Shown here one piece after another: positions 668 to 24,054 of a stretch of DNA of 24,054 bases. Made by a program: the position numbers and the translations under genes. The notes under the pieces are model-generated. The model saw nothing but the letters and a program-made list of their open reading frames with translations, was not told the DNA's origin and ran no database searches. The stretch is from Oligoflexus sp. (GTDB lineage: Bacteria; Bdellovibrionota_B; Oligoflexia; Oligoflexales; Oligoflexaceae). Numbering within the stretch: the first letter of the stretch is position 1; each line of letters begins with the position of its first letter. The DNA lies in NCBI GenBank assembly GCA_041736305.1, contig JBGSTX010000357.1, positions 1 through 24,054 of the forward strand. Direction: 5' to 3'.

Positions 668-1411
668 ATGGCTCTTACTGCCAAGAAAAATGTAGACGAA
701 AACTTAGTGACCCAGAGCGTTGGCTTCGGCATGATGATCGTTGAAGGCTGGGAAAATAGTGTAAATTATGCCCTTTATGAAGTCTCGAATCAAAACATCG
801 GGATCATATCGAGCGATCCCCTCGAACTTGGTATGCGCGTCATCATCGAATTCCGCGAGAATATGCAAATTCCTATGGTCGTGCATCAGAACATTCCAAG
901 TTACAATCTGCCTGAGGGATTCAAACGCTACCGACTCATCTCCCTCGAGTCGACTGTGAATTTCGAGAACCTGCTGCCTGAGTCTAATCACAGGAAGTTT
1001 TCACTTTCTACCCGGCATCACTATCATGTGCGTTTTGTGCGCTTCTCTACAGAGATTCCAACTCTCATCGATGCCAAGACCTTTGGTGCTGGTCAGATCT
1101 ATACTCTGAAAACCATTAATATTTCTAAATCAGGTTTTCTGCTCGCGAGCCCTCCCGGATTCGGTGTTCCCTTCAACGAGGCCACACTTCTCGAGCTGAA
1201 TATTAAGCTCGCGCAGGGACAACAGGTCAAATGTCTTGGAAAAGTCGTTCGCTGTGAATACGATTTCGAACACAAGTACAAACGCTATGGTATAAATATC
1301 AGCGATTTTCACGATGATAGCCGAGAACTTTATTACTCTTACATCGATGATATCGAACACAGTAAAAATCGGCAGATTTTTCGCTTGCTGAAAATTTCTT
1401 CTCCCTACTGA
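668..1411 (+). CDS. PilZ domain-containing protein (putative c-di-GMP receptor)
   Basis: C-terminal half has an Arg-rich linker (RHHYHVRFVRF), an NxSxxG motif (NISKSG) and a PilZ-like ending (CLGKVVR...YGINI). AGGGG RBS upstream. Confidence 0.7.
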   Translation: MALTAKKNVDENLVTQSVGFGMMIVEGWENSVNYALYEVSNQNIGIISSDPLELGMRVIIEFRENMQIPMVVHQNIPSYNLPEGFKRYRLISLESTVNFENLLPESNHRKFSLSTRHHYHVRFVRFSTEIPTLIDAKTFGAGQIYTLKTINISKSGFLLASPPGFGVPFNEATLLELNIKLAQGQQVKCLGKVVRCEYDFEHKYKRYGINISDFHDDSRELYYSYIDDIEHSKNRQIFRLLKISSPY

Positions 1412-2229
1412 GGGACGCTAGCTTGTAGAAATCCCTTTTGGATCCACTGCCGTCGGCATTCAAATGCTGCCATCCCCAAGCTCACGGCAACGTTGAGCGA
1501 ATTCTTCCGCCCCCAGCAGGGAATCTCGATCGTTCCTGCGCAAAGGCTCAGCCTATTGCTTTCAAGCCCGTACCTTTCATTGCCCACAAGAATTCCGAGC
1601 TGCTGCTGCGGAAACTTAAAGTCTTCGAGAGCAATCGCCTGCTCGCTGGTCTCTAACGCGTAAACACTCAGCCTATTGTCCGCTAGTTCTTGAAGCAGCT
1701 CTCGGCAGTGTGGCCGCCACTCCCAGGCTAGATGTTTTTCTGTGCCCAGGGCGGCTTTACTAACCTTATCTTGGTCGGGCCTCGGTGTGTAGCCGCAGAG
1801 ATAAATCTTTTCAATGGCCATGCATTCAGCCGTGCGCAAGATGGAGCCTACATTGAAGGCCGATCGAATATTATCGAGAATAAGGATAAGCGGAAAAACT
1901 GCATTCTTTTGAACTTCTTCATGATCGCCTGTCCGCACGAGAAAATCAGCATCGCTAACGAGTCGGCCATGTTCTCGTTCGATAGGAACGAAAAGGCTCA
2001 AGAACTGTTGGTAGCTCGGATCAGGGGGGATTCTCTTCCGTAGCTCGCCAAGCTTCTGCACGAGTGGACTCTTATGATAAAGAGCCCAATCGAGCATTTC
2101 AAGAACCTTGCGCAGTTCTAGTTTTCTCGAGTCGGTGTCATCCCAAAGCTGTTCAAGTTTAAGAACCTGATCAAGCAGAGCGCGGACAGCCATGGCTTCG
2201 TTCAGTTCAAGAAAAGGTCGAAGCTGCAT
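1405..2229 (-). CDS. TrmH/SpoU-family RNA 2'-O-methyltransferase with N-terminal helical extension
   Basis: SPOUT motifs LDNIRSAFNVGSILRTAE, VGNERYG and KNSLNVAVS. Start moved to ATG 2229 (GAGGGA RBS, 10 nt after the metG stop) because the longer ORF overlaps metG. Confidence 0.9.
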   Translation of the reverse strand: MQLRPFLELNEAMAVRALLDQVLKLEQLWDDTDSRKLELRKVLEMLDWALYHKSPLVQKLGELRKRIPPDPSYQQFLSLFVPIEREHGRLVSDADFLVRTGDHEEVQKNAVFPLILILDNIRSAFNVGSILRTAECMAIEKIYLCGYTPRPDQDKVSKAALGTEKHLAWEWRPHCRELLQELADNRLSVYALETSEQAIALEDFKFPQQQLGILVGNERYGLESNRLSLCAGTIEIPCWGRKNSLNVAVSLGMAAFECRRQWIQKGFLQASVPQ

Positions 2230-2239
2230 GGCTGGTCCC

Positions 2240-4273
2240 TCAAGTAATTCTTTGACCCGGCAGGCCTTTGACATCGGGATAGAGGAGTGCAAGTTCTGTC
2301 CCATCACCAGCCGCCAAGACCATACCTTCACTGACCCCAAACTTCATCTTGCGGGGAGCTAGGTTAGCGACCATGACTGTCAGCTTACCAATGAGATCAG
2401 CCGGCTTATAGGCCGATTTGATGCCTGAAAAGACTTGCCGCGTTTCGCCTTCACCTAATTCAAGAGTGAGCTGGAGAAGCTTGGCGGCTCCCTCAACTTC
2501 ACGTGCATCGATAATTTTAACTATCCGCAGATCAATTTTCTGAAAATCTTCGATCGAGATCGTCGGCGCGATCGAGACGGCGGGAGCTACCTTACTCTCC
2601 TTTTGAGTCGGCTCACTGCTCTTTTCGGCTGCCGCAGCGACAAGTTTTTTGGTCTCTTCCAAGACCTTTTCTATCTGAACCATCTCGACTCTCTTCAGCA
2701 AATGTTCAAAAGGAGCGAGCTCGTGAAATTCCAGAATTTGCTGAGCGCTCGACCACACGTAAGGGCCTTCTTGAAACAATGCCTCGACCTTGAGAGCATA
2801 GCTCGGCAGCACAGGCTTGAGATAGACCGCCATGATCCGGAAGAGGTTGAGTATCGTTGTCAGTATCCCGAGGGTCGCCTCAGTGTCAGTCTTGATCAGT
2901 TTCCAGGGCTCGTAGCGATCGAAATACTTGTTAGCCTCGTCCGCTATCGAACGAACGAGTAGCATCGCTTTGGAAAAATCGCGGGCTTCGTAGAATTGGG
3001 CTATTTCGGTGCTGAGGCCTTGAGCCGCCTTGACCAGTTCTTGCCCCTCTTCCGGAAGCTGTCCCATTTTACCGCCGAGCTTTTGCAGCATCTGTGCTCC
3101 GCGCGACGCCACGTTGGTGATTTTGCCAATCAAGTCGGCATTCACACGCGAAACGAAATCGTCGAAATTAAGATCGATGTCATCGATCGACGAGCTCAGC
3201 TTGCAAGCTAAATAATAGCGAAGATAGCTAGGGTCAACGAATTCCTTGAAGGTAGACGCGAGCACAAAAGTCCCGCGGGACTTGCTCATCTTCGCGCCGT
3301 TGACCTGCAGCATACCGTGCACCAAAATACCTTGCGGGGTCTTGAGCCCTGCAGCCTTGAGCATGGCTGGCCAGAAGAGTGCGTGGTGATAGACTATGTC
3401 TTTGCCGATGCAGTGATAAATTTCGGCTTTGGGATCATTCCACAAACTGTCAAAACTCTTCCCTGCTTTGGCCCCCCACTCACCCAAGGATGCTAGATAA
3501 CCGATAGGAGCATCGAACCACACATAGAAAAACTTCTGCGGGTGCCCAGGAATCTCGAAACCGAAGTAGGGTGCATCGCGCGAAATACACCAAGACTGCA
3601 GATCACCGTCGAGCCATTCACCGAGCTTTTTGCTGATTTCAGGAGCGGTGTGCTCGCCGACCCATTCTTTGAGAAAGTCTCTAAAGTCGTTGAGCTTCAC
3701 GAACAAATGCTCGCTATCTCGCGTCGCGGGGGTGGCTCCACAGATGACGCATCGAGGCGACTTCAGTTCCTGAGCCGCGTAGACCGCACTGCAGTTTTCA
3801 CAACCGTCACCGTACTGGTCGGGAGTTCCGCAACGGGGACAGGTCCCCTTTACGAAGCGATCCGGCAAAAACATTTTATCGTGCTCGCAGTAAGCCTGCT
3901 TCAAAAGCTTGGACTCCAGATGTCCTTTGGACTCCAGAGCCTTGAAAATGCGATTGGAAATTTCCCGATTGCTCGGACTATTTGTCGAGCCGTAGTTATC
4001 GTACTCGATCTCATAGTCTTTAAAGACTTGCAGATGCTCGATCTTCGATGCCTCGATCAAGGCCTCAGGCGTCACGCCCTGCTTCTTGGCATTGATCATT
4101 ATGGGCGTGCCGTGGGTATCGTCGGCACAGATCGCCACACACTGATGACCGCGCATTCTTTGGAAACGCACCCAAAAGTTCACCATGCAATGCTCGACCA
4201 AATGGCCGAGGTGAATGGGCCCATTGGCGTAAGGGAGAGCGGGCGTAATGTATATTTGTCGCTGACCCGACAT
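2240..4273 (-). CDS. metG: methionine--tRNA ligase
   Basis: [13 protein letters not shown] (HIGH), KMSKS, Zn-knuckle Cys pairs (CPRC, CENC, CVIC) and a C-terminal tRNA-binding OB domain ([13 protein letters not shown]). AGGAAGG RBS. Confidence 0.98.
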
Positions 4274-4370: not shown

Positions 4371-6887
4371 TCAGCTTCGCGGTTTTAAACCCGCAGATGG
4401 CACGTAGTTTAGGGGATCATCTGGCCAGGCATGCTTGGGGTAACGCCTTTTCAATTCCTTTTTTACCTCCTGGTAGCTCCCCTGCCAAAAACCTCGTAGA
4501 TCCTGTGTGATCTGGGCTGGCCTTCGACTCGGAGCCAAGAGTTTGATGAGCAGCGGCTGGCGCCCGCGGCATATCCTGGGGGTATCGATCTGACCAAAAA
4601 ACTCTTGGATTCGCGCCTCGATCCAGGGCTCACCTTCGTCTTCATAATGGATTTTCAGTTGTCGTCCGTTTTGCAGGAGGACAGTGTCGGGGCACAATTC
4701 ACGGAGGTGGACCAGATCGCTATAGTCGAGCTGATCTTCTATGGCTTGACGCAGATCTTTCGCATGCACTTCACTCAGAGAATGAGCTCCTTCACAGAGG
4801 TGAAGGATAAGCAGTTCGAGATAATCCCCTGCAAACTGTGGCATATTGTGCTCGACCTTGTTCCGGTCGAGTATCGCCAGCTTGTGGTGATAGGCTCGTA
4901 GTTCGGATACATTCTGGATAGAATCTGGCCAACGTTCGCTCACAACTGCCGCCAGATGCGCGCTCAATTCTCCGCCATCCGCTTGCTCGACGCTTTCACT
5001 GATGAGCAGCTTCCCGTAGAGCTCCTGTTTAATTTTTCTAACGCGTCCCGATTTTTCATCAAAACTAATTTCAAGGGTTTGCCGACGCAGTTCGAAAGGA
5101 TCAAGCTCGAGCCAGCTTGGGTCGATGGCCGTTGAAGTTTCGATGCGGGTTCGCTCTTGAGGGTCGGCACTGAGAGTTTCACGCGCATCGACGGCGACCA
5201 ACCACTCACTCTCGCGCACGATCGACCGTTCACCCAGTACGCCGCCGCGTCCCTGGCAAAAGTTGAAGTGCCGTAGACCACGTCCGCCTCTCTCGGCCAT
5301 GGGTCTGAATTTAGCGATACGATCAGCGAAAGCCAGGAAGATAGCTCGCCGCACCATGAGCTCGTCGAAACTTGATCCAAGAGACGACCAGGATGGCAAA
5401 CGCAGGCCCGGTCGCAGCGAATCATAAAGCTGCCGGATCCGCTGCGACTTATTTCGATCGAGGAGCGGGCTGCCTTGCAGAAGGAGTCCTAACTGATAGC
5501 AGACATCGCAAAGACCCTGCTCCCTTCGCCATTCATCTCGCCGCAAGACACCCTCTTCGTTGATGAGCAGCGCAGCCAAGAGACAGATGGCACCTTGTCC
5601 TTCCCTCTTTCCGGCGAGTACGAGTCGCGCCAAGCGAGGGTGCAGGGGTAGGCCGGCCATTTCCTTAGCGTCTGGACACAAGTTTCCACTGGAATCGAAG
5701 GCCTCCAAGTGTTCGAGCAGTTCCCGACTTTGCTTGATATGCAGATCTTCCGGTGACTCAAACCAGGGGAGTTCCTCCCAAGCCCTGGGAACTCCGGAAA
5801 AAATAACCTGGATCTCAAGCAGCATTTGCGAAAGGTCAATCCGTTGAATCTCGGGTTTGGTGAAGAGCGGCCGACTATTAAATTCGCTTTGGCTGTAAAG
5901 TCGATAGCAAACCCCGGGAGCGACGCGGCCAGCGCGCCCCGCTCTCTGAATCGCCGAAGCCTGACTTATGCGTTGACGTTCGAGAGTTGGTAGACCACTC
6001 CAGGGAGCATATCCAGAAATCTTGGCCCAACCCGTATCGATGACACCCTCGACCCTAGGCAAAGTCACCGAAGTCTCGGCGACGTTAGTTGAGAGTATTA
6101 GTTTGCGACGTCCTTCATCCCGAAAAAGTCGATCGTACTGACCCGCTAGCTCAGCCGTGAGGGGAACGATATCGATCGCGCTACTCAGAGTTCGCTCGAG
6201 GCGCTCGCGGCAGCTGTAGATTTCGCTCATGCCGCTCAAAAACACCAGTATGTTGCCTTTGCAGCGAGGGTCTTCCAGCATCTTATGGACAGCAACGGAC
6301 ACTTCGTCTTCTAGCTTCTGGTTCGGGCCACCCGGGTGGTATTCGACCACGATAGGAAAACTGCGACCCGGCACGTCAAAACTCGGCACCTCGCCTAGGT
6401 AGCTCTGGAGAGGTCCGAGTTCGAGGGTCGCCGACATCACCAGAACGCGCAGTTCTTTGCGTTGAAGAGAGATCGCCCGCAAAATCGCTAGCGCGAGATC
6501 GGTCTGCAGATGGCGCTCGTGAAACTCGTCGAGTATGACGAGATCGAATTCTTTGAGTTGTGGGTCCTGGAGCAATTTTCTGGTGAAGACCCCTTCTGTT
6601 ACGAAGAGCAAGCGGGTAGCAGCTGTCAGCTGCTTTTCAAGTCTGATTTGATAACCAACCAGCTGCCCCAAAGGCTCGCCACTCTGCGTGGCAACCCAGG
6701 AGGCAGCCAGGCGAGCCGCCAAGCGACGGGGTTGCACGACCAGAACTTTCTTAAAGTGTGTCAAAAGTGAGAGGGGCGCCCTCGTCGATTTTCCTGCTCC
6801 CGGCTCGGCCTTGAGGAGCACGAAGGGGGAAGCCTTGAGGGCCGCCGCAATCGCATCCAAGTATGGGTCGATGGGATATGTACTCAT
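4371..6887 (-). CDS. hrpB: ATP-dependent RNA helicase HrpB
   Basis: AEPGAGKST, DEFHER, MSAT, TNVAETSVT and QRAGRAGR motifs, plus the HrpB C-terminus (RPAQITQDLRGFW...RRYPKHAWPDDP). ATG 6887 with GAGG RBS preferred over TTG 6893. Confidence 0.95.
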   Translation of the reverse strand: MSTYPIDPYLDAIAAALKASPFVLLKAEPGAGKSTRAPLSLLTHFKKVLVVQPRRLAARLAASWVATQSGEPLGQLVGYQIRLEKQLTAATRLLFVTEGVFTRKLLQDPQLKEFDLVILDEFHERHLQTDLALAILRAISLQRKELRVLVMSATLELGPLQSYLGEVPSFDVPGRSFPIVVEYHPGGPNQKLEDEVSVAVHKMLEDPRCKGNILVFLSGMSEIYSCRERLERTLSSAIDIVPLTAELAGQYDRLFRDEGRRKLILSTNVAETSVTLPRVEGVIDTGWAKISGYAPWSGLPTLERQRISQASAIQRAGRAGRVAPGVCYRLYSQSEFNSRPLFTKPEIQRIDLSQMLLEIQVIFSGVPRAWEELPWFESPEDLHIKQSRELLEHLEAFDSSGNLCPDAKEMAGLPLHPRLARLVLAGKREGQGAICLLAALLINEEGVLRRDEWRREQGLCDVCYQLGLLLQGSPLLDRNKSQRIRQLYDSLRPGLRLPSWSSLGSSFDELMVRRAIFLAFADRIAKFRPMAERGGRGLRHFNFCQGRGGVLGERSIVRESEWLVAVDARETLSADPQERTRIETSTAIDPSWLELDPFELRRQTLEISFDEKSGRVRKIKQELYGKLLISESVEQADGGELSAHLAAVVSERWPDSIQNVSELRAYHHKLAILDRNKVEHNMPQFAGDYLELLILHLCEGAHSLSEVHAKDLRQAIEDQLDYSDLVHLRELCPDTVLLQNGRQLKIHYEDEGEPWIEARIQEFFGQIDTPRICRGRQPLLIKLLAPSRRPAQITQDLRGFWQGSYQEVKKELKRRYPKHAWPDDPLNYVPSAGLKPRS

Positions 6888-11790: not shown

Positions 11791-12689
11791 AGCTGGCTCA
11801 GCTATGCATTGAGATCTTGCTGCTCGCGCTGCGCCTGCTCCCTTGGAGCTGGCTTGATCCCCTCAGCCGTACCTTGGGAAAAATAGCCCCCAGACTGCTG
11901 AAGCGTGAAAAAAATTTGATAGCCGCCAACGTTGAAGCCGTCTTTGGACTGCGACCCCACAGCGGCTATGCACGGCGATTTCAGGAACAGGTCCTGCGAT
12001 CTCAGTTGATAGTCAGCCTTGAAACTTTCAAATCGGTACTCTGGTCGCAGGGAAATTTGCTAGTCGAAGGCATAGATCTCTTGCAGGAGCAGTTGCGAGA
12101 ACCTTTGGCCGCAGGCCAAGGGGTCATCATAGTTACTGCTCACTGCGGGAGCTGGGAGCTGGTAGCTCGTTCGGTAGCAATTGCGAGTTCACAGCGATTT
12201 TTCGCATTAGCGAAACCCTCGAAGTCGCGGGCATTCACCAGCGTCCTCGCTCGTCTTCGCAGCCACCTGAACACGGAAGTTCTCTGGATCGATAGTAAAA
12301 ATCTTTTGCGCGATATGATAAAGGTTTTGAAATCCGGACAACTTCTCGGCTTTGTTATGGACCAGAAACCCGAGGGGAGGGTCGGACCGCTGGTTAATTT
12401 TTTCGACCGGCCCACGGCCTTCGTTTCCGGTCCGGCAAAGCTTGCCATTCGCCATCAGAGCGCGGTGCTTGCTGTTTTCTGTATGCGGCAAGGTCCCGGC
12501 CGATATAAAATCGACTCGCAGCTCATCGCTCCGGCTCATCACGGGCTCAGCGATGAGCAAGCTTTGACCGAGGCGATGGCGCGGGCAATTGAAGCTTGCA
12601 TCCGGATCTATCCCGAACAATGGATATGGAATTACAAACGGTGGCGATTTCCTTCTCCCAGTCCAAATCCTCGATCGAGCGCTTATTAA
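11787..12689 (+). CDS. LpxL/HtrB-type lipid A biosynthesis (lysophospholipid) acyltransferase
   Basis: HxxxxE (HCGSWE), MDQ, FF and YPEQWIWNYKRW motifs, N-terminal hydrophobic helix. TTGA overlap with the lipA stop. Confidence 0.88.
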   Translation: MKLAQLCIEILLLALRLLPWSWLDPLSRTLGKIAPRLLKREKNLIAANVEAVFGLRPHSGYARRFQEQVLRSQLIVSLETFKSVLWSQGNLLVEGIDLLQEQLREPLAAGQGVIIVTAHCGSWELVARSVAIASSQRFFALAKPSKSRAFTSVLARLRSHLNTEVLWIDSKNLLRDMIKVLKSGQLLGFVMDQKPEGRVGPLVNFFDRPTAFVSGPAKLAIRHQSAVLAVFCMRQGPGRYKIDSQLIAPAHHGLSDEQALTEAMARAIEACIRIYPEQWIWNYKRWRFPSPSPNPRSSAY

Positions 12690-13366
12690 AGCGAAAGAGT
12701 CTTTTGCTGCGCCTGACTCCAAAGCACTTCTTCACCTTAGCGGAAGATCTACTTCTTATACTGGCCATCTCTACGGCTGATCCCGTCCAGAGGAGCCTAT
12801 GGGCGGGGGCGTCGTTTATCGTCGCAGGCTGGCTCTTAATTACGTGGATGCAAGGATTCAATCTCTCCGACCGCTCTTTTTCTATCATCGGCCCTTATCG
12901 CTTCGTACGCAGACCTCAGCGCTTGGCTATAACCTTGCTGGCTCTCGGCTTGAGTATAAGCGCTCGCTCCTTTCCGGCGCTGATTTTCAGTCTGTGTTTG
13001 CTGCCTTATTTCTACTGGGCCGAGCGTTTGGGTTTGAATCGACCGCAGACAGCAGGTGAGCTCGATTTACTTCGCTATCGTCAGCATGTGCCGGCTTTAG
13101 TTCCCACACTTTTCCCCTATATGCACACCCGCTCCCAAAGGGCGAAAATTCCTTTTTCATGGCGGCGTGCCCTCTTCCATTTTGAACCAAGAATAGCGCG
13201 CCTTTTTGTGAGCATACTAGCTGCCTGGCTCCTTTGCCTGCTGCTCGAATGGGTCTGGATCCCTTACTGGGGAGCAGTGGTCGTTTCGCTTTTGCCCCTA
13301 GTCTGGGACCTCGCTGCATTTTGTCGCCAAAGTATCGTCATTCGTAAAGCTCACCTCAGAAGTTGA
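12596..13366 (+). CDS. ICMT/PEMT-like (isoprenylcysteine/phospholipid methyltransferase family) membrane protein; true start possibly 12626 or TTG 12704
   Basis: Several hydrophobic helices, GPYRFVRRP (cf. GPYxxVRHP) and YRQHVPALVP (cf. YxxxVPRxxP). Confidence 0.6.
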   Translation: MHPDLSRTMDMELQTVAISFSQSKSSIERLLKRKSLLLRLTPKHFFTLAEDLLLILAISTADPVQRSLWAGASFIVAGWLLITWMQGFNLSDRSFSIIGPYRFVRRPQRLAITLLALGLSISARSFPALIFSLCLLPYFYWAERLGLNRPQTAGELDLLRYRQHVPALVPTLFPYMHTRSQRAKIPFSWRRALFHFEPRIARLFVSILAAWLLCLLLEWVWIPYWGAVVVSLLPLVWDLAAFCRQSIVIRKAHLRS

Positions 13367-16576: not shown

Positions 16577-16625
16577 CAGGCATAGACTCTACAGCGCCGC
16601 TGTGGATCTTCTTGGGAGGTACTCT

Positions 16626-18032
16626 ATGGCTAAGCATCTAGGAAGCTCAACTCGTACTCAACAGAAGAAGAAGCCTTCTCCTGTCTATCTTCAGGCTCTT
16701 CGCCACTTCTGGCGTGGAGAAAATGAAAGCGCTCTTGCAACTGTTGCCGATGCCTTGGCCGAAGGAAACGAAAACCAGACGGAACTATTTTACCGACTCT
16801 GGATAGAAGTCCTGGCTCAAGAAAACGACGAGGCTAGCCTGAGGATCCTCCAGGAGCACCTCAACCGTGAAATCGATTACAAGCATCCTAGCTGGATATC
16901 TTTCTATGCGCTCATCGGTCTCATACATTACGAGATAGGCGAGCTGGAAGCAGCTCAGATGGTGGTAAAGGCCAGCAGAAAGCACAGCGCTAATGCTTAT
17001 CTTAAAGAATTGCAGATCGTTCTCGATACTGAAGCCGATGACGAGCGCCTTATTCAGCAGAGTCGTGGCCTTGTTCGCCAAACGTCTGATTACTTACACT
17101 ATCGTCGATCCGCGCTTCTGGCCCACCGCGCCCAGAAGAAAACTACTCTTCGCAATCTATTCACTGCTATAGAAGAAACTTTTGGCACCGATCCTCTGGC
17201 CAACGAAATCGGTTTCCACGAGTCTTTTGCCAGCGGCAATTTTCATTTGGCATGGCAAAATGCGCGCAAGCTGCGCGATGATTTCCCTATGCATGCTGAC
17301 TTTCAGTTTTATTATGCGTATGCGTCCTTCAAGACCGAGAGAAATCAGCTTGCTCTCGAACAATTCATGCAACTGAATCGTCGCTTTAAGGCAGAAGACC
17401 CTGACGTCTTGTCGATGATTTGCGCTTCGTTGCTAGCTTCTAGTGCTGAGCATCGCGATAAAAGCCAGAGTATAGAGATTCGTCAGTATCTGAAACGCAC
17501 AGTGCAGCGTCTGTCAGCCATGGGTTTGTCTGCGGCTTATCCCCTTGACATTTTGCAGCGTTTTGAAGGAAGCGACAATACTCAAGCAGGTCGCATGTGG
17601 CTCCTTACATTGAGTGCTCGCCAAAGTGTCGAACTCTACGAGCGTCCTCTAGAACGCATTGATATCCTCCATCGTGCCTTGGGCGAGCATGTGGCAAAGA
17701 ATGACATCTGCTTCTTCATCTCGCAGGGTAGCCAGGATGGAGTCCGATCGCCGGATTCTTATCGTCTCATCGCCATTTATCGGGCTGTTTCTCAACCGCA
17801 GTGGCATCCTCTGCATCGTTGGTTTACGGCTCTCAAGCTGCAGATTCGTATGGAAGTTGGCATTCCTTTTACTTGGCAAGCCAAGCCCCACTCGAGCACC
17901 CATCGCTATGGCCTTCAAGAGCTGGACCATGAAACTCTTGCTTTCATCGAAGACAGCATTCGGAATTTCACTTTAGAAGATCGCGTGTACAGTCATATAG
18001 TTGCCGACCTCAAGACGGCAGGGTCCTTATAA
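16626..18032 (+). CDS. helical/TPR-like protein with possible C-terminal EVE (PUA-like) domain
   Basis: GGGAGGT RBS before ATG 16626. TPR-like segments (FYALIGLIHYEIG, FQFYYAYASF) and a beta-rich C-terminal ~130 aa. Confidence 0.7.
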   Translation: MAKHLGSSTRTQQKKKPSPVYLQALRHFWRGENESALATVADALAEGNENQTELFYRLWIEVLAQENDEASLRILQEHLNREIDYKHPSWISFYALIGLIHYEIGELEAAQMVVKASRKHSANAYLKELQIVLDTEADDERLIQQSRGLVRQTSDYLHYRRSALLAHRAQKKTTLRNLFTAIEETFGTDPLANEIGFHESFASGNFHLAWQNARKLRDDFPMHADFQFYYAYASFKTERNQLALEQFMQLNRRFKAEDPDVLSMICASLLASSAEHRDKSQSIEIRQYLKRTVQRLSAMGLSAAYPLDILQRFEGSDNTQAGRMWLLTLSARQSVELYERPLERIDILHRALGEHVAKNDICFFISQGSQDGVRSPDSYRLIAIYRAVSQPQWHPLHRWFTALKLQIRMEVGIPFTWQAKPHSSTHRYGLQELDHETLAFIEDSIRNFTLEDRVYSHIVADLKTAGSL

Positions 18033-18046
18033 GGGGGGGAATCCTC

Positions 18047-19810
18047 ATGTTTCGCATCGTCATAATTCTTTGCCTTTGGGCTGTAACCCCTTCGTCGCTC
18101 GCGCAGAGTGTGCCGCCTCCGCCACGTCCATCGACCCCAACGCAAGGGCCGGACGGAAGGATAGAAATTCCCGAAACTGGCTTCAGCATGCTGCCGCCAC
18201 CGAATTGGGAAATCCTTCGCAACAGTCACGGGTCGACTCTTCTCTTCCGTGGTCCAAAGGAAGGGGGCGATATCAAGTACCAGTCCACGGTACAGGTGAT
18301 GGTATTCCAGGGCTATCGCTATATCGACGAAGTCACCCAGCAGGAATTTGGCAAGCTGATTGTCGAAAAGTTCGGTGGTGCTTCCAATCAGGTGCAGGAC
18401 TATCGGCTCCGCAGTGCTGAGCAGATTAAGCTTGAAACCGGGGATGAATCGATACTTTTTTACACAGAGTTCACCTTCAACTCGATACCCATTATGCAGA
18501 TGCACATTCTGGTGTCTTCGGCTACTCACCATTTTCTGATGACCTATACTGATCTTGCCAGTTCATTCGAAGAAGACAACAGTAAGGGCTTGATGACGGC
18601 CTATACTTCAATGCATTCGGCGGTTCTAAGCAGCCATCCGCCTTCACGCTATAACTTCATGATTTTAGGCGGCGCCAGTGTCGGAGCCTTGCTCCTCATT
18701 TGGTTTGGTTTTCGTTTTTTCCGAAACTATCAGATGGCTCGACTGGGTGAGCGGATAGAGGAGGAAGAAAATCGCGAAATCCAATCGGATCAGGAAACGG
18801 AATATTACAGCCGTCACACCCCGCTTTCCGAAGCCAATGCTATAGAAGATGATGAGGACGATGTATCGCCGCGTCGCAAGAAGGCCAAAGAAAAGCCTGC
18901 GAAAAAGGTTTCTATGGCTCCGCCGCGCCGGACCGAAGAAGTAGATGACGAAGATCGTGAGCAAGACGGCCGCCAGATGACTGACAGTCATGTCCACTCG
19001 GAGCTCGAACCTTTGAGTGATATGAAGAGCCATATGGCCTCTGAGATAAGCCACATCTTCCCGGAACCAATGGTCTTGACGCCTCACAACGCTGATGCCG
19101 AACGCCGGCAATTGGCGAGTACGGTTCCTCCGATTTTTCCTCCAGAGCATCAATCCTCGTTTGCTCCGCCACCGGTAGTGCCAAATTGGAAGCACGGTGA
19201 GGAGTCGACTCGCGCGACGCAACCGCCCCTCCCACCACCGGGTCCTTCTCTATCGAAGACGGTACCACCCATGGTTGCGGAAGCGACTCGTGTAACAGTG
19301 CCTCCAAGCGTTCCACAGAATCTTCGGAAGACTGTTCCCCCTATGAATCCGCTTGATCTTGAAATTCCAACTCAGCATTCAGAGGTCGCTAAACTCTCAG
19401 ACATTCTTCCGCAGGACGGCACCGAAGACGGTAAAAAGGGCAAGAAGAAGGGATTTTGGAGCAAGAAAAAGGACAGGGACGAAGATGAGTCGGAGCAGAT
19501 GGAAGATGACGAGGTCGCTCCGGTTTCCTCAGTATGGGCAGTAGAAGGCGATAATCAAGCTCCGAGCGAGGACTTTGATGTTCAAGAGCCAAAGCCCAAG
19601 GGCCGGTCCAAAAAGCCAGCTACCCAGGTGGCGAAAGAAGAAGTTGCCGTGAAAGAAAAGGCGAAGGCTAAGGATAAGAAAAAGGCCAAGAAGGAAGAGC
19701 AGCCCGAATCGATTCATGCTGAGGAAGATGCAGGGGAAGCAGACGGCTGGAATTTAGCTGAGGAAGGCCAACCAGCGAAGAATCTAGATGATGATGAGGA
19801 AGTCAGCTAA
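18047..19810 (+). CDS. single-pass membrane protein: signal peptide, exported domain (PsbP/DcrB-like by eye), TM helix, long low-complexity tail
   Basis: Signal MFRIVIILCLWAVTPSSLA, GFSMLPPPNWE, TM FMILGGASVGALLLIWFGF, then ~360 aa of E/D-, K- and P-rich sequence. AAGGGGGG RBS, 14 nt after the upstream stop. Confidence 0.75.
   Translation: MFRIVIILCLWAVTPSSLAQSVPPPPRPSTPTQGPDGRIEIPETGFSMLPPPNWEILRNSHGSTLLFRGPKEGGDIKYQSTVQVMVFQGYRYIDEVTQQEFGKLIVEKFGGASNQVQDYRLRSAEQIKLETGDESILFYTEFTFNSIPIMQMHILVSSATHHFLMTYTDLASSFEEDNSKGLMTAYTSMHSAVLSSHPPSRYNFMILGGASVGALLLIWFGFRFFRNYQMARLGERIEEEENREIQSDQETEYYSRHTPLSEANAIEDDEDDVSPRRKKAKEKPAKKVSMAPPRRTEEVDDEDREQDGRQMTDSHVHSELEPLSDMKSHMASEISHIFPEPMVLTPHNADAERRQLASTVPPIFPPEHQSSFAPPPVVPNWKHGEESTRATQPPLPPPGPSLSKTVPPMVAEATRVTVPPSVPQNLRKTVPPMNPLDLEIPTQHSEVAKLSDILPQDGTEDGKKGKKKGFWSKKKDRDEDESEQMEDDEVAPVSSVWAVEGDNQAPSEDFDVQEPKPKGRSKKPATQVAKEEVAVKEKAKAKDKKKAKKEEQPESIHAEEDAGEADGWNLAEEGQPAKNLDDDEEVS
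19121..19342 (+). repeat. protein-level TVPP repeats
   Basis: TVPP encoded at 19121, 19259, 19295 and 19331 (last three exactly 36 nt apart), TQPP at 19217. Codons differ between copies. Confidence 0.75.
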
Positions 19811-19940: not shown

Positions 19941-21002
19941 ATGTTCACCGCCATGAATTTCACAGGTGATAGCCTACGCTTGATCGATCAGCGTCGATTG
20001 CCGCACGAGGAAATCTGGATTGAAGGCCAGGACCTCGAAACTGTGGCTCAGGCCATAGAAAATATGACTGTGCGTGGTGCGCCTGCGATTGCAACAGCTG
20101 CTCTTTATGCTTTGGTTTTAGACGCCAAAAATGCCAGTTTCCGCACTTGGGCGGATTACCGGGCTAGATTCTTCCAAGGTTGTCAGCGCCTTCAGGCGAC
20201 CCGCCCCACGGCTGTGAATCTCTTCAATGCTTTAAATGCGGTTCGTCAAGCGGCAGACACCTGGTCATCTGAGCTGCCAAAGGCTGAGCTTTTGCCTCTT
20301 ATCACGGCGGCGGCTCAGGCCTTGGAAAAGAGCGATCTTGAGACCTGTCGAGCCATAGGCGAGCACGGGGCAAGTTTGGCCAGCTCTGCGGGCTCAATGA
20401 GGGTCCTCACGCACTGCAACACCGGCTCTTTGGCGACGGCGGGTTATGGAACAGCTTTGGGGGTGATTCGTTCGCTCTACACGCAGGGTAAGCTCGAGCA
20501 TGTTTATGTCGACGAGACGAGGCCATATCTCCAGGGATCTCGTTTGACTGCCTTTGAGTTGCAGTCGGAGGGTATTCCTTACAGTATCCAGACTGACTCA
20601 GCCGCGGCTTATTTGATGCGTTACGAGCGGGTGGATATGGTTGTGGTGGGGGCGGATCGTATTGCTGCGAATGGTGATACGGCGAATAAGGTGGGGACTT
20701 ATTCTTTGGCGATAGTTGCTCAGTATCACGGTGTGCCTTTTTATGTCGCAGCGCCACGTAGTACCTTTGATCCGTTGATTCCTGATGGTCGTTCGATACC
20801 GATTGAGATGCGTCCTCCTCAGGAGATTACGGAGCATGGTGGTCATCCGATTGCTCCGCGTCAGGCTCAGGCGAAGAATCCTTCTTTCGATGTGACGCCG
20901 GCGTCATTAATAAGCGGTTTAATAACGGAGTATGGAATTATAAGGGCTCCTTTCGGGGAGGGCATTCAGGAGCTTTTGAGAAAGGGATGTCAGAGGAGTT
21001 GA
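19941..21002 (+). CDS. mtnA: S-methyl-5-thioribose-1-phosphate isomerase
   Basis: IDQRRLP, VRGAPAI, RPTAVNL, LTHCNTGSLAT, DETRPYLQGSRLT, GADRIAANGDTANKVGTY and NPSFDVTP motifs. GAGGAG RBS before ATG 19941. Confidence 0.97.
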   Translation: MFTAMNFTGDSLRLIDQRRLPHEEIWIEGQDLETVAQAIENMTVRGAPAIATAALYALVLDAKNASFRTWADYRARFFQGCQRLQATRPTAVNLFNALNAVRQAADTWSSELPKAELLPLITAAAQALEKSDLETCRAIGEHGASLASSAGSMRVLTHCNTGSLATAGYGTALGVIRSLYTQGKLEHVYVDETRPYLQGSRLTAFELQSEGIPYSIQTDSAAAYLMRYERVDMVVVGADRIAANGDTANKVGTYSLAIVAQYHGVPFYVAAPRSTFDPLIPDGRSIPIEMRPPQEITEHGGHPIAPRQAQAKNPSFDVTPASLISGLITEYGIIRAPFGEGIQELLRKGCQRS

Positions 21003-21027
21003 CAGCGCAAATTATTTTTGCGATAAG
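20999..21027 (+). promoter_or_regulatory. putative sigma70 promoter of tRNA-Val
   Basis: Perfect TTGACA overlapping the mtnA stop, N17, then GATAAG preceded by TGn, 12 nt before the tRNA. Confidence 0.55.
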
Positions 21028-21039
21028 CATTGCACTCGT

Positions 21040-21116
21040 GGGGGTTTAGCTCAGTTGGTTAGAGCATTAGCCTTACAAGCTAAGGGTCGCGAGTTCGAAT
21101 CTCTCAACCCCCACCA
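21040..21116 (+). tRNA. tRNA-Val (anticodon TAC)
   Basis: Cloverleaf: GGGGGTT/AACCCCC acceptor, GCTC/GAGC D-stem, TTAGC-CT TAC AA-GCTAA anticodon arm, TTCGAAT T-loop, discriminator A and encoded CCA. Confidence 0.97.
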
Positions 21117-21237
21117 GATTTTTTCCCAAAAAAAATCCCTCCATTATCTCTCAGCTATCAACAAAAGCTTTAAGCCACTAAATGTCGAATACCAAAGTAG
21201 CCCAATTGGAGCGAACTCTCACAAAGTGGAGATGCCA

Positions 21238-21435
21238 GTGCCTTCTGTTTTAACTCAAGCCAAGAGACACGTGCGTATCACGAGAAACCTCAAGCTGAGT
21301 GCAACGCGCAAACTATTCATCATGCTTTCGATAGTAGGTTTGGTTCTCTACACGATGTTTTTCTCCACAATGCCGGCTGTTCATGATTATTTCCACGAGC
21401 TCAGGCACGGTCTCATGATGATACCTTGTCACTAA
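21238..21435 (+). CDS. cbtB: CbtB-like small membrane protein (putative cobalt/metal transporter subunit)
   Basis: One TM helix followed by VHDYFHELRHGLMMIPCH-stop, matching the CbtB H-x3-H-[DE]-x-R-H-x5-P-C-H C-terminus. GGAG lies 6 nt before GTG 21238 (ATG 21232 alternative). The longer ORF overlaps the tRNA. Confidence 0.75.
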   Translation: MPSVLTQAKRHVRITRNLKLSATRKLFIMLSIVGLVLYTMFFSTMPAVHDYFHELRHGLMMIPCH

Positions 21436-21448
21436 AAAGGGACCGCTT

Positions 21449-22495
21449 GTGCGCAGTTTAGCAATATTCCTCATCACGCTCACGAGTCTACTAGGCGCGA
21501 GTATCAGTTTTTCTGCCCCAATTATAAGTTTCCATAGCGAGCAGGACCTAACAAACGTCCGGCCACGTCACGACAAAGTAAGCATCTCGCTTGACCTCCC
21601 CAAAAGCAATAAAGCAGGCATTAAAAGTTTAAGGGTAAAGCTGCTAGCCCCTCCCAGTCAGATTTTCTTTTCCACGGACTTTCCAGCGGTAGAGGGAAGC
21701 ACCCTCTTTGACTCAGTAATTTCTTTCGAAGAGGGATCCTTCAAGTTTTCGTTTGTGCCGCCGATCCGGGGTGAATATCGTCTTGAGGTGATTCCGGTAC
21801 CAGTGAATCAAGGCTCTTTGCAAAAAGAGGAGTGGCGCTTCAAGATACAGGAGGACCCCAGCAGGGTGACGAACCTAGGCTTCTTCCTCCTGATTCTCGG
21901 ACTCGTATGTGGTCTGAGTGCTTACGTGATTGGTGCGGCTGAGGGGAAAAAGGCGAATCTTCTAGCTCAAGCGTCGGTCTTAGTTTTCCTCATATTAGCG
22001 TCACCGCTTATAGCGCATGAGCAACATAGTCCCCACAAGATCTCCAAAGAGAATATGCAAGCAGAAGGCAGCGATGGTCTCAAGCTCGACCTCCGCCTCT
22101 CAAGCGAGCAGCCTCGAGTAGGCGAGACGGCTGAACTGAGGGGTACCCTTCTCGATGCCAACAATCAGCTTATCCCGGCCCGCTTCCATCTGACTTTCAT
22201 GCAGATGGAGCACGACTTAGAGGTGTTCTCGACGGACCTTCTCAGTAGCGAAGGTCAATTCAGCTGGAACGGACAGTTTGTCGATGGTTCTCCCCATCGG
22301 GTTGAGGTAGAAGCCTTCCCGACTAACGAAAAATTAAAGCCTATAAAGGCTTCATTTGAGGTTGGGGTTCAAGCCGTGCCACCTCCACTTGCTGCAACGG
22401 GAAAATCTTTCTCCTCCCTTATGCTTTTTGCGGCATTGGCGATGCTTTCAGGATTTTTTTTAGGTCATTACAAGCAGAGTAGAATCAAAGTTTGA
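21449..22495 (+). CDS. uncharacterised membrane protein with two exported beta-rich domains and His/Met motifs
   Basis: Signal-like N-terminus, two central hydrophobic helices, AHEQHSPH, MQMEHD, DGSPH and a C-terminal TM. AAGGGA RBS, 13 nt after the cbtB-like stop. Confidence 0.75.
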   Translation: MRSLAIFLITLTSLLGASISFSAPIISFHSEQDLTNVRPRHDKVSISLDLPKSNKAGIKSLRVKLLAPPSQIFFSTDFPAVEGSTLFDSVISFEEGSFKFSFVPPIRGEYRLEVIPVPVNQGSLQKEEWRFKIQEDPSRVTNLGFFLLILGLVCGLSAYVIGAAEGKKANLLAQASVLVFLILASPLIAHEQHSPHKISKENMQAEGSDGLKLDLRLSSEQPRVGETAELRGTLLDANNQLIPARFHLTFMQMEHDLEVFSTDLLSSEGQFSWNGQFVDGSPHRVEVEAFPTNEKLKPIKASFEVGVQAVPPPLAATGKSFSSLMLFAALAMLSGFFLGHYKQSRIKV

Positions 22496-23718
22496 GCCAA
22501 GAACCTTTTACAGAATCCCTCACGATTCCTCCAAGTCTTATCGACCAGATTATTGGGCAAGACAAGGCTGTGGGTATCGCTCGCATAGCTGCCCGGCAAC
22601 GCAGATTCATGTTTTTGGTCGGGGAGCCCGGCACAGGCAAGAGTCTCATCGGTCGAGCTTTTGCTGAACTCCTCCCAGCGCCTTCCGAATTCGTTGTGTC
22701 TTCAGTACCAAATCCTCTGAATCCAGTACGTCCTCTCATTCGTTGTGAAAGCAAAGAGGATTTTTGCAAGCGGCAAGAACGTCTTGCACAAAGCCAGAAA
22801 GCCGAGAGCTTATCAAACGCGTACTTGATCTACTTCGCGCTGGTATCAGGAGCGTTTATAGCCCTATGGCTGAGCTTTCGAGATCGAACGCTGGCCTATC
22901 TCCCCTTCTTTCTCTTAGCGGGTCTCTTCCTCTGGCAATGGCGTCGCTATTCGAAAACAAAGAAGATGAACCAAATAGCTCCAAAGATCTTACATATGGT
23001 TGAGGATCAGAGTCCATTTATTGATGCGACCGGATGCAGCGATGGAGCTCTTTTTGGGGACATACGGCATGACCCCTTTCAATCCGGAGGCTCGGAAACG
23101 GCTCCTCACCTCCTCGTTGAAGCGGGAGCTATCCACAAGGCTCATCGAGGGGTACTTTTTATTGACGAAATAGGCCAGCTAAGCCAGCGCTCGCAGAAGC
23201 TTCTTCTGAGTGCGATTCAGGACAAAAGCCTGCCTATAACAGGGCGCCAAAGCGGATCAAGTGGGCGAATGGTTTGCACCGAAGCTGTTCCTTGCGACTT
23301 CGTGCTCATTGCTTCCGGCAACATTGATGACCTATCCAAGCTTTCACCTGCATTGCGTTCTCGATTCATGGGATTCGGTTACGAAGTTCTGATGAAAAGC
23401 GAGATTCCAGATACCGTAGACAATCGAGAGGCTTTACTGCGATTCATAGCACAGGAAGTGCTCAAGGATGGGCGAATTCCCCACTTTTCCAGGTGCGCTG
23501 CAGATGAAGTTATTGCGGAAGCGAGCCGCCGTGCAAAGCGTGAAGGATACCTTACAGCCCGTTTGCGAGAGCTAGGGGGACTTGTAAGGATTGCTGGAGA
23601 TCTAGCTGTGCACGCAGCAAAACCATTAGTAAGCAAGGAATTCGTCCTTGAGGCCTTGCGCTACACCGCTAGTATAGAAGAGCAGCAAAAACAAGAAAAC
23701 CAAAACACAATGTCCTGA
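22492..23718 (+). CDS. archaeal-type LonB AAA+ ATPase with two TM helices, lacking the protease domain
   Basis: IPPSLIDQIIGQ, Walker A GEPGTGKS, PNP, two TM helices, PFIDATG, GDIRHDPFQSGG, EAGAIHKAHRGVLFIDEI (Walker B), VPCDF, ALRSRF, QEVLKDGRIPHF and RLRELGGLVR. Ends shortly after SIEEQ. TTGA overlap with the upstream gene. Confidence 0.88.
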   Translation: MSQEPFTESLTIPPSLIDQIIGQDKAVGIARIAARQRRFMFLVGEPGTGKSLIGRAFAELLPAPSEFVVSSVPNPLNPVRPLIRCESKEDFCKRQERLAQSQKAESLSNAYLIYFALVSGAFIALWLSFRDRTLAYLPFFLLAGLFLWQWRRYSKTKKMNQIAPKILHMVEDQSPFIDATGCSDGALFGDIRHDPFQSGGSETAPHLLVEAGAIHKAHRGVLFIDEIGQLSQRSQKLLLSAIQDKSLPITGRQSGSSGRMVCTEAVPCDFVLIASGNIDDLSKLSPALRSRFMGFGYEVLMKSEIPDTVDNREALLRFIAQEVLKDGRIPHFSRCAADEVIAEASRRAKREGYLTARLRELGGLVRIAGDLAVHAAKPLVSKEFVLEALRYTASIEEQQKQENQNTMS

Positions 23719-23747
23719 ACCTTTTAAAGCAGATCTTTTTAATCAGT

Positions 23748-24053
23748 TTAAGGTTCTCCTAGCACCGGGAGTATCCAACCCGCAGCCGCTGCCTCTCGAA
23801 AGAATGAGGCGCTCTCGCTGCTAGTTAGATCCACATACTGATTGACGATTGCTCCATTGCTTTCAGGGGCCCCGACTGAAGTAATTCCAGCCAGAGTCCC
23901 TGAGCTCAAAAGCAGGGCTCCGCCCGAGTCACCAGGAGCAGCAGCTGCGTCACCAGAATTAGGCGAGTAAAATAGCTGTAGCGTACCGGCGCTTATCTGC
24001 TGAATCTTAGCCCGACCTAGGCGTTTGAGCCCTATACCGGCACCTGGAGTAGT
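23748..24053 (-). CDS. trypsin-like (S1) serine protease, C-terminal part (5' partial, not in the ORF track)
   Basis: Manual minus-strand translation ...GIGLKRLG...AAAPGDSGGALLLSSGTLAGITSVG...YVDLTS...GEP*. GDSGG catalytic Ser motif, TAA at 23750-23748. Confidence 0.8.
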   Translation of the reverse strand, partial: TTPGAGIGLKRLGRAKIQQISAGTLQLFYSPNSGDAAAAPGDSGGALLLSSGTLAGITSVGAPESNGAIVNQYVDLTSSESASFFREAAAAGWILPVLGEP

Positions 24054-24054
24054 C

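Follow-up and report, generated by a model that had tools for sequence, protein, structure and literature searches.

The DNA examined here (hereafter the window) is a stretch of 24,054 nucleotides (nt) from Oligoflexus sp., contig JBGSTX010000357.1 of assembly GCA_041736305.1. Near its end lies a cassette of three genes, encoding in order a small protein resembling CbtB, a nameless membrane protein with two β-sandwiches, and, third and overlapping the second, a membrane AAA+ ATPase of the archaeal LonB type that has no protease domain (Table 1). This ATPase was the subject of an original prediction, made from the sequence alone, which described a LonB cut cleanly before its protease domain and kept as a membrane unfoldase, extractase or chelatase-like motor.

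The ATPase gene begins with a TTG start codon, part of a TTGA that it shares with the stop of the upstream open reading frame (ORF) of 348 amino acids (aa), and it ends 10 residues past a SIEEQ motif, with 29 nt (23719-23747) between its stop and that of a convergent trypsin-like ORF. The NCBIfam model for archaeal LonB, TIGR00764, matches residues 7-399 over model positions 7-398 of 608 (E 3.1e-119, 399.3 bits), a score that falls under the curated whole-protein cut-off of 516.6 bits because the protease half is absent. A Pfam scan of the ATPase returned AAA-type domains and the LonB lid and no Lon_C (PF05362), so that the C-terminal B-type Lon protease domain with its Ser-Lys dyad is missing. 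The best solved match was 4zpx (residues 6-390 against chain residues 29-410, E 3.7e-109), a 413-residue chain named only 'ATP-dependent protease Lon' in the structure table. We take 4zpx to be the isolated AAA+ module of Thermococcus onnurineus LonB (TonLonB), which is also solved as 3k1j; if so, the natural ATPase stops almost at the end of that crystallisation construct.

The motifs of an AAA+ motor are intact. Among 25 protease-less homologues, G44, P46, G47, G49, K50 and S51 of Walker A and L222, D225 and E226 of Walker B are invariant, as are N277, R289, S290 and R291, whose roles as sensor-1 and Arg-finger region are presumed by homology with LonB, and R359, L361, G362 and G363, of which R359 is the presumed sensor-2 arginine. 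Hydropathy places two membrane spans, at about residues 110-129 and 134-150, between the Walker motifs; the AlphaFold2 model (mean predicted local distance difference test score, pLDDT, 88.3) forms a helical hairpin there (H88-131 and H136-162), and in 4zpx the hydrophobic insert of TonLonB falls at this place in the alignment. PMC9569914 defines for LonB a membrane-anchoring insertion with a transmembrane (TM) fragment inside the AAA+ module, and puts pore loop-1 of TonLonB, the loop that grips and pulls polypeptide, at residues 209-232. That stretch aligns with DIRHDPFQSGG of the window ATPase, the match in numbering being approximate, and within it R192, H193, D194, P195, Q197, S198 and G199 are invariant in the same homologues and position 196 is F or Y. 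Alignment and modelling thus agree with the original prediction on the Walker motifs, ASGN, RSR, RLRE, the two-helix insertion, the DVRHDPFQSGG-type motif and the archaeal LonB type, as does the DNA itself on the stop and the short gap to the convergent gene. Together these features show the gene to encode a predicted functional, protease-less AAA+ ATPase of the LonB branch, putatively anchored in the inner membrane by its two-helix hairpin.

Table 1. Position of the cassette, its neighbours and the motifs of the ATPase, in window coordinates.
Feature	Position	Strand	Basis
tRNA-Val (anticodon tac)	21040..21116	+	ARAGORN, Rfam RF00005
cbtB-like gene, 67 aa	21232..21435	+	Pfam PF09489
Nameless membrane protein, 348 aa	21449..22495	+	AlphaFold2, profile search
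Protease-less LonB-type membrane AAA+ ATPase, 408 aa	22492..23718	+	TIGR00764, 4zpx matches
Walker A GEPGTGKS, residues 44-51	22621..22644	+	sequence reading
Two-helix membrane hairpin, residues ~110-150 (LonB membrane-anchoring insertion)	22819..22941	+	hydropathy, AlphaFold2
DIRHDPFQSGG, residues 190-200, inside LonB pore loop-1	23059..23091	+	alignment to TonLonB
Walker B LFIDE, residues 222-226	23155..23169	+	L222, D225, E226 invariant
Presumed sensor-1 N277 (ASGN) through RSR Arg-finger region R289, R291	23320..23364	+	
Presumed sensor-2 arginine R359, in RLRELGG	23566..23568	+	
Trypsin-like ORF, convergent	23748-24053	-	ORF listing

Protease loss across the family

The absence of the protease domain is common to the nearest relatives of the window ATPase. 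Among the best 120 of at least 8000 scored candidates, the 28 nearest homologues (P0002-P0029; 68-48% identity) are 400-477 aa long and all without Lon_C, and full-length archaeal LonBs share no more than 45-50% identity. Every short form in the alignment ends a few residues past a SIEEQ-type motif, an end seen in near homologues of 400-455 aa (68-46% identity). When the 120 database matches and 10 locus-encoded proteins were sorted by their extensions beyond the AAA+ core, 47 of the 130 sequences were short, 65 were of protease length, 17 carried an N-terminal HEAT-like extension of about 180-235 residues and no protease, and one was extended at both the N- and the C-terminus. Ratios of nonsynonymous to synonymous change (dN/dS), calculated by the Nei-Gojobori method between ATPase orthologues, were 0.136 for the single unsaturated pair (L022 and L117, dS 0.46) and 0.10-0.20 in eight further pairs (dS 1.3-2.3); the pair L021 and L025 was saturated, as were all pairs with the window's own gene except that with L187 (dS 2.5). 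These values support purifying selection on the protease-less ATPase family. The shared truncation point and a dN/dS well below 1 both speak for a natural short form, as the original prediction had it.

A protease encoded elsewhere was sought in the genome (5.0 Mb, 392 contigs, 92.7% complete). It holds five matches to PF05362, namely three LonA proteins, two of them cut by contig ends, one LonC-like protein of 832 aa and one YifB/ComM, and by Pfam all five carry ATPase modules of their own. The PF05362 search found no stand-alone Lon_C partner gene in this 92.7%-complete genome, and no Lon_C-like ORF is present in any cassette examined, which leaves the idea of a cleanly cut LonB standing.

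Two proteins that branch near the archaeal clade, and belong to the cobalt-linked group or stand close to it, retain what look like traces of the lost domain. In L038 from Paenibacillus (4422-6746) and in P0033, about 180 C-terminal residues align with the Lon protease domain, and the catalytic Ser and Lys positions are replaced, by Thr and Ala in L038 and by Pro and Leu in P0033. The Lys position in this alignment is the one that we take to be catalytic. The Ser position was placed by the D547/S550 spacing given in PMC9569914. By sequence the two proteins look like dead-protease intermediates in the loss of proteolysis. The HEAT-like subfamily comprises L036, L038, L106, L121 and 16 database proteins (for example P0032, P0072 and P0087); the N-terminal ~180-235 residues give weak HEAT-repeat matches, and where the context can be judged it contains CbtB or cob genes. 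A further short form, the 514-aa archaeal LonB ORF at L078 from Candidatus Methanocorpusculum faecipullorum, lies within the protease-bearing clade; its length probably reflects a frameshift or a break in the assembly and not another natural loss of the domain.

Two quick trees of the AAA+ core, with support by the Shimodaira-Hasegawa-like approximate likelihood ratio test (SH-aLRT) only, place the window ATPase among these short forms. In the first (IQ-TREE, LG+G4; 106 rows, with identical cores merged and the partial record P0116 left out), it falls in a 30-row clade made up entirely of short forms (SH-aLRT 100), and all 44 protease-bearing archaeal-type rows form one clade (96). The second tree (139 rows, with two LonA outgroups) takes in 73 protease-length locus rows, 72 of them in the archaeal-type clade plus L038; the protease-bearing clade is again single (99) and holds those 72 rows and L078. 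In both trees all bacterial protease-less forms lie outside the protease-bearing archaeal clade, with the HEAT-like ATPases branching nearer to that clade than does the short form of the window. The root of the second tree cannot be trusted because the outgroup branch has a length of 5.0 and the root falls inside the window's own subclade; this rooting with LonA was treated as long-branch attraction, and we draw no direction of transfer from it. On these trees the bacterial protease-less family appears to be old and diverse and nested in no sampled archaeal lineage. Horizontal acquisition from archaea, a part of the original prediction, is thereby neither shown nor excluded.

The cassette and its link with cobalamin

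The first gene of the cassette most likely starts at the ATG at 21232, which has a GGAG 4 nt upstream; a listed 126-aa ORF at 21055-21435 is over-extended and begins inside the tRNA-Val. The 67-residue product has a single TM helix, preceded by a basic N-terminal tail (TQAKRHVRITRNLK) and followed by a C-terminal HDYFHELRH...PCH motif. It matches Pfam CbtB (PF09489) with 30.3 bits against a cut-off of 27 and is the only CbtB match in the genome. Across 17 ATPase-linked homologues there is no variation at H51, H55, E56, R58, H59, P65, C66 and H67, and the C-terminal P.VHD..H..RH.....PCH motif is common to all CbtB-like proteins compared. The N-terminal tail, by contrast, varies with the presence of the ATPase: among 20 distinct ATPase-linked CbtBs (from Oligoflexus, Leptospiraceae, Paenibacillus, uncultured lineages and one archaeon) the segment before the TM helix is basic, with a median net charge of +5 (range +2 to +7), whereas 34 CbtBs without a linked ATPase begin MER...WLG...E and have a median tail charge of 0 (range -3 to +4). 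By the positive-inside rule the basic tail would lie in the cytoplasm and the His/Cys motif in the periplasm. The tail would then be the sole conserved cytoplasmic feature of the CbtB/membrane-protein pair, and it is also the sole feature that varies with the ATPase. One archaeal locus also pairs the two families: in L049, from a Candidatus Hydrothermarchaeota archaeon (974-3090), a full-length LonB of 640 aa is followed by a convergent CbtB-like ORF of 65 aa (2893-3090, minus strand) that begins at the LonB stop and shows the basic N-tail expected of a CbtB with a linked ATPase; it is the only LonB/CbtB case among 74 archaeal-type loci, and the contig ends shortly beyond.

The second gene encodes a protein with a signal or anchor helix, a first sandwich (residues 27-133), a TM hairpin (137-163 and 167-183), a second sandwich (203-305) and a C-terminal TM helix (314-347), modelled by AlphaFold2 from an alignment of 40 sequences with a mean pLDDT of 90.7 and a predicted TM-score (pTM) of 0.84. 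No Pfam or NCBIfam family covers it, and Pfam scans of 40 members gave nothing significant. Foldseek returned generic tandem Ig/FN3-like matches with a query-normalised TM-score of at most 0.25, and matches in a protein atlas were nameless 'hypothetical protein' clusters. A weak lead to YtkA (14% of one 169-aa cluster, score 0.89) was not borne out by Pfam, which matched YtkA in 1 of 40 members at E 0.15. A profile search of 1.84 billion representatives found 459 clusters at E <= 0.001 and 229 at E <= 1e-30, which by sequence makes this a modest nameless family. Because the N-terminus is of the signal type, both sandwiches are predicted to be periplasmic, with almost nothing but short loops in the cytoplasm. 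At three loci (L039:3897-5005, L038:3215-4239 and L174:417-1351) two consecutive half-size genes of about 175-183 aa, each contributing a single sandwich and a TM segment, replace the one long gene, which suggests either a duplication and fusion behind the 348-aa form or a fission behind the halves. A three-chain complex prediction with the partner, CbtB and the ATPase scored 0.00 against a mark of 0.32; it was run without controls and counts neither way.

Conservation of the three genes was followed in several sets of genomes. The ATPase is present in 6 of 13 other Oligoflexus genomes and in none of 27 genomes from other genera of the family and order (E <= 1e-30 in both cases). All six ATPase-bearing relatives have the three genes in the same order, with identities of 66-74% for CbtB, 34-39% for the membrane partner and 51-56% for the ATPase; the mtnA-like and trypsin-like neighbours on either side are not conserved across them. 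A profile of the membrane partner hit exactly the same 7 of 14 Oligoflexus genomes as the ATPase, so that the cassette comes and goes as a unit within the genus; this patchy presence, always with the partner, fits movement of the cassette among bacteria. tRNA genes also precede the cassette in L022, L023, L024 and L026, a synteny kept across the genus, with about 115 nt (21117-21231) from the tRNA to cbtB in the window. The stop of the membrane-protein gene and the start of the ATPase gene overlap as NTGA in 12 of 15 loci. These arrangements show the ATPase gene to be the last, apparently translationally coupled, gene of a conserved three-gene cassette.

Beyond the genus, among the 80 loci kept from a genome scan anchored on LonB, 74 were archaeal-type and 5 were bacterial besides Oligoflexus. 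Hidden Markov models of the partners, run on these loci, found the linkage also in a Leptospiraceae metagenome-assembled genome (L039), in Paenibacillus vietnamensis (L038) and in an uncultured bacterium (L106); L039 and L038 carry the membrane partner as two halves of about 180 aa, and the Planctomycetales locus L036 is cut at its start. A metagenome scan anchored on the membrane partner, and so independent of LonB, gave a further 80 loci. A CbtB-like ORF adjoins the partner in 77 of them, the other three being cut by contig ends, and a LonB-like ATPase is adjacent in 11, with 23 that could not be judged. Most of the loci without ATPase have the same set of neighbours (glyoxalase, aldehyde dehydrogenase, enoyl-CoA hydratase) and probably represent one soil lineage.

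The surroundings of the cassette point to cobalamin. In L039 it lies between CobQ, CobO and CobB upstream and a CbiX-ferredoxin, DUF3209, an FAD oxidoreductase and CbiD downstream; in L038 a tetrapyrrole methylase, CbiX and CbiJ come after it; and in L036 CobQ and CobB lie downstream of the ATPase. In four of the six relatives within Oligoflexus (L022, L023, L024 and L026) the CbtB-like gene is directly preceded by a cobalamin riboswitch, as is the cassette in L038 (RF00174, 104-110 bits); Rfam found none at L021, L025, L039 or L106. The riboswitch precedes the cassette in 8 of the 11 metagenomic loci with an ATPase and is missing from one (L119), the start being cut off in the other two; none was found at 8 ATPase-less loci sampled from 46. 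In all, 13 of 20 judgeable ATPase-containing cassettes stand behind an RF00174 riboswitch, a count in which kin are not independent. At L121:675-1117 two riboswitches lie back to back, one at 934-1117 on the plus strand reading into the cassette and one at 675-843 on the minus strand facing the opposite way. The cassette is thus shown, on this genomic context, to be a predicted member of the cobalamin regulon in relatives. In the genome of the window the cassette is isolated from the cob genes, of which tblastn found CobQ, CobO, CobB, CbiD, a tetrapyrrole methylase and a CbiX-ferredoxin; searches of this genome did not find CbtA (PF09490), CbiM or NiCoT.

Scans of 20900-24054 gave no promoter-like sites and four terminator-like sites, all on the minus strand and no more than in shuffled sequence. 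Elsewhere in the window, two consecutive ORFs at 16602-18032 (476 aa) and 18047-19810 (587 aa), and another at 12596-13366 (256 aa), match no Pfam family at E <= 1e-4.

Proposed function and competing explanations

Several known systems resemble parts of this cassette. What defines a Lon protease is the union of ATPase and protease in a single chain. With archaeal LonB the window ATPase shares an AAA+ module that is 45-50% identical over its whole length, the hairpin between Walker A and Walker B, the lid domain and the long pore loop-1 with RHDP(F/Y)QSGG; it differs in being bacterial, in having no protease domain, in standing outside the archaeal clade and in belonging to a type fixed in a CbtB operon under cobalamin control, a link found in only 1 of 74 non-bacterial loci (L049). 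Held against the LonB protease family (TIGR00764, MEROPS S16 LonB), then, it has the AAA+ module and the membrane insertion and lacks the protease domain, a score at the cut-off and a place in the clade. Database names for its homologues are 'ATP-binding protein', 'AAA family ATPase' and 'Lon-like ATP-dependent protease', the last of which is misleading for protease-less ATPases. The HEAT-like protease-less ATPases (585-651 aa; P0032, P0072, P0087, L036 and L106) share the AAA+ core, the SIEEQ-like end and, where this can be judged (L106, L121 and L036), the same CbtB/membrane-protein or cob neighbours, and differ by roughly 180-235 extra N-terminal residues, with weak HEAT_2 matches, that the window ATPase does not have.

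The other two genes recall CbtAB (PF09489 and PF09490), a predicted cobalt transporter with a small CbtB subunit, to which the 67-aa protein is assigned by Pfam, through its C-terminal His/Cys motif, but not by NCBIfam, and whose genes, like those of the relatives studied here, lie in cob operons or behind cobalamin riboswitches. In the cassette, however, the partner is not the five-TM CbtA but a protein of two periplasmic sandwiches and three TM helices, and the ATPase-linked CbtB has an extra basic N-tail. The B12-regulon survey of Rodionov and colleagues from 2003 is said to have first proposed CbtAB, and might mention such genes. In the literature found, no AAA+ component has been described for CbtAB, and, judged from titles and the starts of abstracts, nothing links CbtB with LonB or LonB with cobalamin in this way; a term search of the main text of one cobalt review (PMC7689651) gave no mention of CbtA, CbtB or a Lon-type component.

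It is reasonably likely that the ATPase is an ATP-driven accessory motor of a B12-regulated cobalt uptake system of the CbtB type, and that it acts on the CbtB tail. The CbtB-like protein and the two-sandwich membrane protein would form the uptake unit, with the parts presumed to handle metal (the HD..H..RH...PCH motif and both sandwiches) in the periplasm. The ATPase, presumably a hexamer beneath the membrane, would grip the basic cytoplasmic N-terminal tail of CbtB with its pore loops and spend ATP to drive, gate or reset the unit, so that cobalt might be acquired more effectively when B12 is low. Nothing would be degraded because there is no protease chamber. According to PMC7689651, cobalt importers are typically recognised by a context of cob operons or cobalamin riboswitches. 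A CRISPR interference knock-down of the classical cbtB in M. capsulatus is reported in PMC13108547 to improve growth at 1 µM CoCl2, a relief of cobalt stress that speaks for CbtB as part of an importer. Of the original prediction, the LonB-type membrane AAA+ motor without protease is upheld; a generic unfoldase role is too unspecific given the CbtB cassette.

Several observations weigh against a motor for cobalt uptake. No RF00174 riboswitch was found at the cassette of the window, even in permissive E-value mode, the genome as a whole holds only two sub-threshold matches of 29 bits, and 7 of the 20 judgeable cassettes have none. The NCBIfam CbtB model (TIGR02459) gives the window protein 20 bits against a cut-off of 64.4, and its match covers the C-terminal motif only. 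In 46 of 57 judgeable metagenomic loci the CbtB/membrane-protein pair has no adjacent ATPase (at least 600 nt downstream), with an ATPase elsewhere in the genome being possible; the motor is therefore not required for the existence of the pair. The contrast in tail charge sets about seven ATPase-linked lineages against essentially one, because the ATPase-less loci mostly share one synteny. Finally, the direction of the effect (drive or shut-off), the hexamer and the engagement of the tail are points that we infer.

The same parts could be arranged in other ways. A motor that pulls CbtB or the whole unit from the membrane, or apart, would serve as a shut-off or quality-control extractase, stopping the entry of toxic cobalt or clearing mis-assembled units and perhaps handing the protein to another protease such as FtsH. 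Archaeal LonB is a membrane protein-quality-control protease and its pore loops are kept here, CbtAB cobalt import can be harmful at 1 µM CoCl2 (PMC13108547), and the basic tail of ATPase-linked CbtB could equally be used as a degradation-type handle. Yet translational coupling ties the ATPase to the uptake genes, behind the same riboswitch, so that it would be made exactly when uptake is wanted and in step with its target; no protease gene is linked to it, and the ATPase-less pairs manage without such control. Co-expression from a riboswitch-controlled, overlapping operon favours a positive role over extraction, and we regard an extractase as unlikely. A different arrangement makes the ATPase a metallochaperone that hands cobalt from the membrane unit to a chelatase such as CbiX, or the cassette one for corrinoid import or salvage, since CbiX adjoins the cassette downstream in L039 and is near it in L038 and cobalamin riboswitches also control corrinoid import and salvage. 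AAA+ motors of another clade are known in metal insertion (ChlI/ChlD, CobS/CobT, and MoxR-type proteins such as NorQ or CbbQ), with ChlI/ChlD and CobS/CobT powering insertion itself; the window ATPase resembles them as an AAA+ ATPase tied to the handling of a metal cofactor, and they differ in clade, in being soluble and in having neither the membrane hairpin nor the LonB pore loop. The chelatase-like role suggested in the original prediction came down to short Mg_chelatase matches across the Walker A region, where PF01078 covers only residues 18-65 (profile positions 3-50 of 207) and ChlI structures align across some 90 residues, at best with E 1.7e-5; a chelatase subunit was rejected on the PF01078 match. 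Chelatase-family matches of about 50 residues stand against a LonB match over the whole length, the membrane-anchored ATPase keeps a polypeptide-gripping pore loop, the Oligoflexus cassette lies away from the cob genes, and the CbtB family is tied to cobalt, not to corrinoid, all of which makes a metallochaperone or corrinoid role improbable.

Two further explanations deny that the short ATPase is a complete motor. A separately encoded Lon protease domain might dock and rebuild a LonB; this was prompted solely by the clean cut at the domain boundary, with no other support found, and it is very improbable, given that the five PF05362 proteins own their ATPase modules and the cassettes hold no Lon_C-like ORF. 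At 92.7% completeness of this genome, a Lon_C gene could conceivably lie on a missing contig. The replaced Ser and Lys of the remnants in L038 and P0033 indicate decay of proteolysis and not a split. A recent pseudogene or an assembly artefact, with an accidental truncation, is hardly credible. The gene lies 336 nt from the contig end, and the window lineage has no close DNA relative and a saturated dS of its own, but the stop falls within the contig and is followed by the convergent gene, and we rejected this explanation on the short homologues, their shared end, the invariant motifs and the purifying dN/dS.

A bolder version of cobalt uptake by the cassette is conceivable, in which a hexameric, protease-stripped AAA+ ring pulls again and again on the basic tail of single-pass CbtB and so moves its periplasmic His/Cys cobalt-binding end through or against the two-sandwich partner, making the whole a new primary active metal importer. 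This is doubtful; if it were true, cobalt entry would be powered by a protein-translocating motor and not by an ATP-binding cassette (ABC) or P-type ATPase, and the cassette would define a new class of transporter. Action of the ATPase on cobalt uptake is directly testable because the three-gene system occurs in cultured bacteria, Oligoflexus tunisiensis Shr3 and Paenibacillus vietnamensis N4.

For the biology of B12, the cassette represents a candidate cobalt acquisition system with two undescribed parts, a β-sandwich partner and an AAA+ motor, riboswitch-controlled in relatives and found here in a genome without a recognisable CbtA, CbiM or NiCoT. For the LonB branch, the findings point to a widespread bacterial lineage that dropped the protease, with intermediates that appear to carry dead remnants of it, and whose motor would have been re-used beyond degradation.

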